Virus record (IMG/VR): IMGVR_UViG_3300017978_000250
Location: 1 to 64,000 of that record
Strand: one strand, 5' to 3'
Source: a virus
Lineage: Duplodnaviria; Heunggongvirae; Uroviricota; Caudoviricetes
Length of the DNA: 64,000 nt
Under the pieces are notes generated by a model. That model saw only the letters and a list, made by a program, of their open reading frames with translations, ran no database searches and was not told where the DNA came from. This document shows, piece by piece, positions 27,881 to 28,135 of this stretch. Every line of letters begins with the position of its first letter. Position 1 is the first letter of the stretch. Made by a program: the position numbers and the translations under genes.

Positions 27881-28135
27881 TTAACGAAATTTTTCTTTGC
27901 GTGATTCAGTTGAATCGGAATTACGTACTTTTTTCAAGTACTCACGACCTACTAAACCTTGTTCAATCTCAAGCAATGCTGTAACTACACGGGCATTGTT
28001 TGTATCTATCTTTGGACGATGTCCATTAGCTAGTTCACGTACTCTTGCTGATGCAATCAATACTAAATCGTATCGATTACCTACTGCATCTACTGCTGTT
28101 TGGCTTGTGTACCGTACTCGGCTTTCTGTCGTCAT
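27881..28135 (-). CDS. rpoZ: RNA polymerase omega subunit-like protein (RpoZ-like)
   Basis: TAVDAVGNRYDLVLIASARVRELANG...VVTALLEIEQGLV closely parallels bacterial RpoZ N-terminal consensus. Confidence 0.55.
   Translation of the reverse strand: MTTESRVRYTSQTAVDAVGNRYDLVLIASARVRELANGHRPKIDTNNARVVTALLEIEQGLVGREYLKKVRNSDSTESRKEKFR

Follow-up and report, generated by a model that had tools for sequence, protein, structure and literature searches.

The stretch of DNA considered here (the window) comprises 64,000 nucleotides (nt), positions 1 to 64,000 of the IMG/VR record IMGVR_UViG_3300017978_000250, and carries on its minus strand, at 27881-28135, an open reading frame (ORF) of 84 amino acids with an ATG start and a TAA stop in the ORF listing. 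The initial annotation had proposed at this place a gene similar to rpoZ, which encodes the omega subunit of bacterial RNA polymerase (RNAP), and both the coordinates and the quoted peptide strings were found to be exact in the predicted product, MTTESRVRYTSQTAVDAVGNRYDLVLIASARVRELANGHRPKIDTNNARVVTALLEIEQGLVGREYLKKVRNSDSTESRKEKFR. The profile that had been recommended as a check, PF01192 (RNA_pol_Rpb6), matches the product with 48.5 bits (E 8.9e-13, gathering cutoff 26), and TIGR00690 (rpoZ), an equivalog of NCBIfam, matches it with 30.2 bits against a cutoff of 23.6; under the narrower omega equivalogs NF001579 and NF001588 the scores lie below the cutoffs. Lack of a significant RpoZ profile match had been named as the result that would speak against the proposal; such a match was obtained, therefore the identification as omega stands. 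In a phmmer comparison with all PDB sequences 24 of 26 matches were omega or Rpo6 chains, with E. coli omega at the top (E 2.2e-10, ORF residues 8-72 aligned with omega residues 3-68). The AlphaFold2 model, calculated with 84 homologues, reached a mean predicted local distance difference test score of 78.5 (above 90 for residues 21-60) and has ordered helices predicted at residues 65-73 and 76-82. When this model was compared with the PDB by Foldseek, each of the best 50 matches was an omega chain (E. coli, Vibrio, Pseudomonas, Xanthomonas, Caulobacter or Mycobacterium), the best of them being 8tom_K (E 5e-5, template modelling score 0.67/0.76). It can be regarded as practically certain that the ORF encodes a true omega homologue.

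Other readings of the same segment were considered and discarded. Membership in the archaeal and eukaryotic RpoK/Rpb6 branch failed, with 15.6 bits for NF002209 (RpoK) against a cutoff of 93, and the Rpo6/K chains in the PDB comparison reach an E value of 0.4 only. An RNA element inside the ORF was rejected as well, since the Rfam scan yielded no family within it and the RNA structure across it is modest (z -2.4). On the plus strand an overlapping ORF (27897-28157) is present; it is a shadow frame, and both the signal of the family and the purifying selection belong to the minus-strand frame. Among the PHROGs v4 profiles no family matched the product, even at E values up to 10.

The gene had also been described as embedded in an array of tRNA genes, and this was borne out. 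ARAGORN called 44 tRNAs between 24381 and 38883, all of them on the minus strand, and the omega gene is enclosed by tRNA-Gly, which ends 25 nt before the ATG, and by tRNA-Ala, which begins 9 nt past the stop codon. The window is phage DNA, as evidenced by rIIA (phrog_612, 1.9e-131), rIIB (1.6e-81), NAMPT and phage PHROGs, and it represents the early region of a jumbo phage. Its rIIA shares only about 37% identity with its counterparts in Pseudomonas jumbo phage PA5oct, Aeromonas T4-like phages and Xanthomonas phage XacN1; among 50,697 GenBank phage records no close DNA relative was found, the matches being limited to short tRNA segments.

The large family to which the omega protein belongs is known from metagenomes only. 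From 5.8 billion proteins, 436 clusters related to the ORF were obtained by a word-indexed search, and the top matches were 60-90% identical, 66-102 amino acids long, metagenome-only and located on contigs of up to 367 kb. The identical protein is present on 8 JGI metagenome contigs, and IMG/VR contributed 41 loci at 45-79% identity, on contigs including those of 364 kb (IMGVR_UViG_3300043418_000114), 367 kb (3300023174_002543), 353 kb (3300020045_006153), 123 and 121 kb. An exhaustive phmmer search of 1.84 billion representatives gave 478 matches with E values of 1e-3 or less; the ~75 at the top of the list are metagenome-only and of the same type, one cluster reaching a 387-kb contig. Among 185,579 species-representative genomes no close relative was detected except on a 1.8-kb contig in a metagenome-assembled genome (MAG) of Polynucleobacter; this contig, on which tRNAs flank the gene as in the phage loci, was regarded as probably a mis-binned phage fragment and at most as a weak hint of the host.

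The family is under purifying selection. The median ratio of nonsynonymous to synonymous substitution rates (dN/dS) is 0.24 and the maximum 0.52 (Nei-Gojobori method, 52 pairs with dS of 0.1 to 1.5), synonymous sites being saturated in most other pairs, and eleven columns are invariant among 84 sequences. In all 42 related loci the gene has its start codon, ribosome-binding site and full length, and the GC content at third codon positions of the window gene (0.21) is like that of the neighbouring small phage genes. The omega gene is an old functional resident, neither a recent capture nor a relic. ARAGORN was re-run on the 42 related loci: tRNAs are present in 37 of them, at 300 nt or less from omega in 36 and on both sides in 23, often only 3-30 nt off, and the whole set of tRNAs found (534/534) lies on the strand of omega. 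The order Val-Gly-omega-Ala-Ser of the window is repeated in loci L001-L003 and L006-L008, while in L004 tRNA-Gly and omega are separated by an insert and in L005 the downstream tRNA is lacking. In other respects the flanking tRNAs differ by clade (Gly/Ala, Met/Arg, Met/Gly, Gly/Met, Ile/Gly, Arg/His, Leu/Ile), so the association of omega with tRNAs has outlived rearrangement of the array. This association fits selection for co-expression, although the arrays may also be just permissive insertion sites. Synteny in the relatives comprises PpiC, the small ORFs, tRNAs, omega, a Ro-like gene and a phosphatase of the DSP type, and rIIA/rIIB follow further out. One lineage has no tRNAs close to the gene, and there omega adjoins a phage family-B DNA polymerase (PolB).

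The features of the window are listed in Table 1. Omega belongs to a co-oriented run composed of tRNA-Pro, ppiC, the small ORFs, tRNA-Val, tRNA-Gly, omega, tRNA-Ala and tRNA-Ser. The leader between tRNA-Gly and the start codon is unpaired in the centroid fold and carries the purine-rich element GAAAG some 9 nt before the ATG; similar elements (AAAG/AAGG) stand upstream of the omega homologues. In relatives (L045-L054) omega is likewise preceded by the PpiC-type gene and two of the small ORFs, and the small ORFs, of about 50-60 amino acids and with no family matches, are candidate functional partners of omega. On the other side lies the convergent DnaJ-like gene, which is usually found near omega in relatives too; its 3' end and that of tRNA-Ser have 13 nt in common (27701-27713), and there the two transcription units collide head-on.

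Table 1. Features of the window related to the omega gene and its surroundings.
Feature	Position	Strand	Basis or remark
NAMPT and fused NMN adenylyltransferase-Nudix protein (NMNAT-Nudix), NAD+ salvage pair	2682-4082 and 4867-5886	minus	
RNA-repair/RNA-quality-control set	20299-22226 and 25110-26528	minus	beside the tRNA array
DSP-type phosphatase	23233-23736		
J-domain (DnaJ-like) gene, convergent	27117-27713	plus	Pfam DnaJ, 67 bits; closes the minus-strand unit
tRNA-Ser(tga)	27701-27790	minus	ARAGORN, Rfam; downstream of tRNA-Ala
tRNA-Ala(tgc)	27796-27871	minus	ARAGORN, Rfam
omega (RpoZ-like) gene	27881-28135	minus	ORF, profiles, fold, dN/dS
C-terminal motif VGREYLKK, residues 62-69	27929-27952	minus	alignment
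conserved omega core GNRYDLVLIASARVREL, residues 19-35	28031-28081	minus	84-sequence alignment
N-terminal extension MTTESRV	28115-28135	minus	alignments with E. coli and Burkholderia omega
leader, 25 nt, from tRNA-Gly 3' end to ATG	28136-28160	minus	sequence
tRNA-Gly(gcc)	28161-28236	minus	ARAGORN, Rfam
tRNA-Val(tac)	28245-28319	minus	ARAGORN, Rfam; upstream of tRNA-Gly and omega
three small ORFs	28646-28810, 28470-28646, 28334-28501	minus	co-oriented, between the isomerase gene and tRNA-Val
parvulin-type peptidyl-prolyl isomerase (PpiC)	28812-29090	minus	Pfam Rotamase, 72 bits; upstream of omega, co-oriented
tRNA-Pro(tgg)	29113-29189	minus	ARAGORN; first gene after the hairpin, heads the run containing omega
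terminator-like hairpin, 10-bp stem and T run	29226-29250	minus	between tRNA-Met and tRNA-Pro
sigma70-like promoter TTGACA-16-TATACT	29636-29665	minus	11/12; nearest strong one upstream of omega
perfect promoter TTGACA-N17-TATAAT	30086-30114	minus	upstream of omega; one of 18
GOLLD RNA (RF02032)	31568-32033	minus	208 bits, gathering score 150; inside the tRNA array
HNH homing-type endonuclease	34786-35418	minus	inside the tRNA array

The perfect promoter consensus TTGACA-N17-TATAAT occurs 18 times in the window against 0.01 expected, at sites from 7494 to 46243 and always on the minus strand; one of the copies, at 35418-35390, overlaps the start of the HNH gene. A spacer common to many of them, TTGACAAATAATC....TTTGG...TATAAT, suggests a dedicated class of phage early promoters with extra recognition elements. 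Judging from these motifs, the promoter-rich early region is read by the sigma70 holoenzyme of a host with canonical -35/-10 promoters. T4-type late promoters (TATAAATA) show no enrichment in the window (3 against 4.2 expected), which is uninformative for an early region. A separate promoter directly 5' of the omega unit was rejected, as only weak matches were found there, and the terminator-like hairpin at the head of the unit may attenuate read-through into it.

Comparison with cellular omega concerns three parts of the protein: the core, the C-terminal tail and the N-terminus. The core columns invariant or nearly invariant in the 84 sequences are G19, N20, R21, D23, L24, L26, I27, A28, R31, R33, E34 and L35 (D23, A28, R31 and R33 being invariant), and the window protein contains the motif NR[FY][DE]L..[LI]A..RAR.[LM] common to E. 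coli and Burkholderia omega. The tail motif VGR[ED]YLK[KR] is present in ~140/170 family members and not in E. coli omega. Betaproteobacterial omega was expected to possess a similar tail, and the sequence with which this was tested proved to be 99% identical to the omega of Burkholderia pseudomallei. The alignment with Burkholderia omega is gapless, with 44% identity and with the GH.PKI loop and the VG.E.LKKV tail in common; that with E. coli omega shows 42% identity, a 2-residue gap and no tail match. The Burkholderiales counterpart of VGREYLKK is VGVEMLKK, so the idea that this motif is an invention of the phage was abandoned. Because the VG.E.LKKV tail is homologous in Burkholderiales omega, the C-terminal tail of the phage protein appears to be inherited from omega of this type, and it is R64 and Y66 that constitute the phage-specific invariants (VGR-E-Y-LKK versus VG-V-E-M-LKK).

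In the exhaustive search the best-ranked cellular cluster bearing a name was omega of Comamonadaceae (Ramlibacter, Variovorax, Macromonas, Xylophilus) at 49% identity, just above the gammaproteobacterial types (43-46%). The scores of the family against Burkholderia and E. coli omega are nearly equal (medians 129 and 122), too close for a firm assignment of the donor lineage, which was therefore rejected. A betaproteobacterial-type donor is tentatively suggested by the gapless architecture and the Comamonadaceae identity, and the similarity of omega together with the Polynucleobacter-binned fragment weakly points to freshwater Burkholderiales as the host.

In cellular proteobacterial omega Met-Ala-Arg stands at the extreme N-terminus, and this MAR motif predicts binding of guanosine tetraphosphate (ppGpp) at Site 1 (PMC6912228). 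The phosphates of ppGpp are coordinated by omega residues 2-5, and with omega lacking these residues the dissociation constant exceeds 100 uM, against a micromolar value for the wild type that is similar to the 7.9 uM of Site 2 (PMC7676912); the contacts of the 3'-diphosphate are made by main-chain atoms of A2, R3 and V4 (PMC10191844). Site 1 governs ppGpp-induced pausing and backtracking and not the stringent response at initiation (PMC10191844). The window protein starts with MTTESRVRYTS, 18 residues before GNRYDL, and its R8 aligns with R3 of E. coli and Burkholderia omega, so the position of Met-Ala-Arg is displaced by 5 residues and a MAR placed 13 residues before G/P-N-R-F is missing. 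An extension of 4-5 residues of this type, M[ST]E?ESR[VA]RYTS, occurs in ~60/170 family members. The canonical 13-residue spacing is retained in ~51/170 (31 MAR, among them L003 and L010, 19 MPR and 1 MSR). In other clades the N-terminus is longer and of unrelated sequence; a number of database versions in which it is very long were set aside as over-extension by the gene caller through the upstream tRNA. From the alignments, the N-terminus appears remodelled in the subfamily of the window; that Site 1 is also functionally altered is a tentative proposal, rather doubtful at present.

Taken together, these features argue for a phage omega that is probably loaded onto the host RNAP early in infection and may change its response to ppGpp, the carrier being an uncultivated jumbo phage, probably of a freshwater Burkholderiales-type proteobacterium. 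According to the proposed mechanism, the host sigma70 RNAP would transcribe omega together with the tRNAs early in infection, and RNase P and 3'-end processing of the tRNAs would release an omega mRNA of about 290 nt. The phage omega would then dock on the host beta' subunit like cellular omega, supplementing or replacing the host omega, and such binding to beta' is considered likely. The initial annotation had suggested ppGpp sensitivity or assembly of the host enzyme as the property affected, and both suggestions receive indirect support from the displaced Met-Ala-Arg and from the conservation of the core by which omega binds beta'. Once docked it could keep the core polymerase assembled, stable and sigma70-biased in slow-growing or starved hosts. 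It has been reported that in stationary phase omega decreases about 2-fold and part of the RNAP is devoid of it (PMC7676912), and that RNAP without omega prefers sigmaS over sigma70 (PMC7700224); since the phage relies on perfect sigma70 promoters, it would gain from an omega-saturated polymerase. Finally, in the subfamily of the window the 5-residue extension would remodel ppGpp Site 1; with the site remodelled, RNAP moving along long phage operons and tRNA arrays would pause and backtrack less in response to ppGpp. RelA/SpoT and MazG, proteins of ppGpp metabolism, were not found among the window ORFs scanned. Co-transcription with tRNAs and release of the mRNA is the likeliest of these steps, followed by binding to beta' and then by alteration of Site 1.

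Several points weigh against this mechanism. Every step past omega homology is deduced from sequence, and the terminator-like hairpin separates the nearest strong promoters from the omega unit. The phenotypes of rpoZ deletion in E. coli are mild (PMC7700224, PMC7676912), so the gain from an omega top-up is not obvious. As regards Site 1, about 30% of the family keep the canonical MAR/MPR spacing, hence remodelling of the site cannot be the common function of the whole family, and the extension might be tolerated because the contacts are made by main-chain atoms (PMC10191844). A phage-encoded polymerase may also exist, given that 64 kb were read of a genome perhaps larger than 300 kb.

Different roles of the phage omega can also be imagined. 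One of them is a private docking handle: the phage protein would replace host omega and a phage activator would read its specific surfaces (the ESR extension, R64 and Y66 of VGREYLKK), so that only phage-marked RNAP is recruited to middle and late promoters. A precedent is offered by GafA, an activator of the Rhodobacter gene transfer agent (RcGTA), a phage-like element, which acts by direct contact with omega (PMC9638019), and the phage-specific invariants exceed those common to Burkholderiales omega, the N-terminal extension is conserved and not random, and two or three small conserved ORFs always lie just upstream of omega. However, no partner protein was found, the proposal depends wholly on analogy, and the N-terminus is highly variable over the family, which argues against a single conserved interface; such a handle is judged improbable on this analysis. 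A poisonous subunit, binding the core more tightly or more rigidly, blocking sigma70 binding and initiation and thus aiding host shut-off, seems still less probable. Dominant-lethal, more helical "structured" omega mutants of E. coli do bind alpha2-beta-beta' more tightly, are located mostly in the C-terminal region CR3 and reduce sigma binding about 5-fold (PMC7700224), and the phage protein has an invariant C-terminal motif unlike that of E. coli, with helices in the model at 65-73 and 76-82. Nevertheless the same type of tail is present in normal Burkholderiales omega and is therefore no signature of a poison, and in an early region with 18 perfect sigma70 promoters inhibition would harm a phage lacking another polymerase, none of which was seen.

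That the protein is a subunit of a multisubunit RNAP encoded by the phage itself, like the Rpb6 homologues of giant eukaryotic viruses, is very unlikely. It is true that some jumbo phages encode such polymerases (PMC12619734) and that the sequence examined amounts to 64 kb of the genome, with flanks of 10 kb or less in the relatives. Still, no beta/beta'-like ORF was found in the 64-kb window or in the inspected flanks, the protein is 44-49% identical to proteobacterial omega with a core and tail of host type that fit host beta', and transcription of the region depends on host sigma70 promoters. The known multisubunit RNAPs of phages (phiKZ and AR9 types), moreover, are not known to include omega. 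Least credible of all is a functionless passenger, a captured fragment of a host gene persisting in the tRNA array as a hotspot of small insertions. Small ORFs and genes of homing endonucleases do gather in the tRNA arrays of large phages (the HNH gene of the window is one), and rpoZ of E. coli is dispensable (PMC7700224), but the low dN/dS with saturated synonymous sites and an invariant core effectively refutes this idea; the gene is intact in all 42 loci, is kept in lineages down to 45% identity and in differing flanking contexts, and has a composition matching the phage. Loading of a phage omega onto host RNAP remains the preferred reading.

The initial annotation had called a phage-encoded omega unusual, and the searches agree with it. 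In a tblastn comparison of the window protein and two divergent relatives with the 50,697 GenBank phage records only bacterial rpoZ was found, in mislabelled or contaminated records (CAKLQH020000003.1, CAKLQF020000004.1, MG065691.1, MG065686.1, OR845831.1, OR851528.1, AFYI01000003.1, AGRM01000003.1). These matches were rejected as phage omega: the 240-kb contigs of "Acinetobacter phage MD-2021a" show the chromosomal context pil-ispH-gmk-rpoZ-spoT, UNVERIFIED Campylobacter phage records and tiny "phage" records carry rpoZ of enterobacterial type, some matches lie in UNVERIFIED or unannotated records of which a few have a length of 1.5-1.7 kb, and two rpoZ entries of the phage collection are Salmonella whole-genome shotgun contigs. 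Records of this kind are contamination or mislabelling and could mislead searches. No description of a phage-encoded omega was found in open-access papers and preprints. The freshwater "moraphage" lineage of jumbo phages was considered as the same group and rejected, since its predicted hosts are Bacteroidota and no RNAP homologues were reported for it (PMC12619734). The automatic annotation of JGI labels many proteins of the family "RNA polymerase subunit omega", so the omega label pre-exists in databases, and it is the phage origin and the family that appear to be unrecognised. The protein family as such is known; what is new is its biological setting, and the N-terminal modification and the genomic placement are distinctive.

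Bacterial RpoZ of the Burkholderiales type (~67 amino acids) has the same family and fold as the phage protein, and the core N-R-[FY]-[DE]-L-x-L-x-A-x-x-R-A-R-x-L is present in both. The phage copy differs in the displaced Met-Ala-Arg, in R64/Y66 and in its short charged C-terminal tail, and its gene is flanked by tRNA-Gly and tRNA-Ala and not by gmk-rpoZ-spoT, a context that is typical of cellular rpoZ without being strictly required. Phage factors redirecting host RNAP include gp55/gp33, AsiA/MotA and RpbA of T4, Gp2 of T7 and P7 of Xp10. They resemble the present case as phage proteins which reprogram the host enzyme, and the phage described here needs host sigma70 early, as T4 does; they are, however, sigma replacements, appropriators and inhibitors unrelated to core subunits, whereas the phage omega is a homologue of a core-associated subunit. 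The GafA system likewise belongs to a phage-like element using omega as a regulatory contact of RNAP, but there the activator comes from the element and omega from the host (PMC9638019), while here it is omega that comes from the phage, with no known activator.

Phages also carry copies of host expression parts, namely tRNA arrays and ribosomal proteins (bS21 of pelagiphages is an example). The phage omega follows this strategy, in which a small exchangeable part of a host macromolecular machine comes in a phage version, and its gene even lies within the tRNA set; the former serve translation, in contrast to omega, which is directed to the transcription machine. Mixed operons of tRNAs and mRNA are represented by thrU-tyrU-glyT-thrT-tufB of E. 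coli, where a protein gene is co-transcribed with tRNAs a few nt away and tRNA processing is implied to free the mRNA. Unlike tufB, the omega gene has tRNAs on either side, 25 and 9 nt away, and its mRNA would lie inside the array, co-transcription being presumed. Nucleocytoplasmic large DNA viruses possess Rpb6/RpoK homologues as subunits of their own complete polymerase of eukaryotic type; these are also virus-encoded members of the omega/Rpb6 superfamily, but the phage protein scores far below the RpoK cutoff and no viral polymerase was seen.

Of the subunits of bacterial RNAP, omega is the one least understood, and the role of ppGpp Site 1 has only recently been tied to elongation and DNA repair. 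A conserved phage family implies that the dosage or identity of omega matters in infection, enough for long-term carriage. Sigma factors, RNAP-binding inhibitors and whole polymerases had already been recognised as contributions of phages, and replacement of a core-associated subunit would be a further category of host takeover. The natural N-terminal variants make Site 1 and the function of omega directly testable in reconstituted polymerase, and the conserved placement in tRNA arrays suggests joint deployment of transcription and translation supplements in slow-growing hosts. Blind spots of databases are also corrected, as the family is absent from PHROGs and from genomes of cultured phages and the "phage" rpoZ of GenBank is bacterial contamination. 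A broader idea, that jumbo phages of freshwater proteobacteria mark host RNAP with their own omega as an unrecognised takeover strategy, is speculative and at present rather unlikely. Should it be true, a sub-population of host RNAP would exist which is not slowed by ppGpp at Site 1 or which is recognisable by phage factors, expression of omega within the tRNA array would raise transcription and translation capacity together in starved hosts, and the N-terminal variants (MAR-type versus ESR-extended) would amount to an evolutionary experiment on the role of omega and Site 1.

The RNA-repair and quality-control set beside the array consists of T4-type RNA ligase 1, a polynucleotide-kinase-like protein, a phosphoesterase (phrog_547) and a Ro/TROVE-like vWA protein (phrog_850, 8.7e-143; DUF2828/DUF7788), the last being an RNA-binding protein. 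The GOLLD RNA has tRNA-Lys(ctt) nested in it at 31898-31970, and HNH genes recur by the arrays of relatives. The NAMPT/NMNAT-Nudix pair for NAD+ salvage resembles the pathway of vibriophage KVP40. A tRNA-like gene of 97 nt at 30487-30583 on the minus strand, with a long variable arm, was scored by Rfam with 56 bits and given no call by default ARAGORN; genes of 90-96 nt in the related loci are called tRNA-Ile(tat), and a class-II-like isoleucine tRNA would be unusual. Abnormal anticodon loops were reported by ARAGORN in related loci (L005 4060-4134, L010 218-292, L040 9224-9312), one being a 4-base anticodon "tttc" on a 364-kb phage contig and 2-base anticodons occurring elsewhere; these may be frameshift-suppressor-like tRNAs or miscalls. 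Genes related to release factors lie close to the array: in a 361-kb relative (L051 14722-15393) fragments of PCRF and RF-1 domains were noticed, and the window ORF 23739-24194 (minus strand) has a weak match to baeRF_family3 (E 0.008, below the cutoff). At ~40900-59400 at least eight radical SAM, SPASM and B12-binding enzymes, including a zinc ribbon of the HMPTM type, are clustered on both strands within a block of lower GC content (0.37 against 0.42), which is unusual for a phage; the cluster may represent a pathway for ribosomally synthesised and post-translationally modified peptides or for modification of nucleic acids or cofactors.

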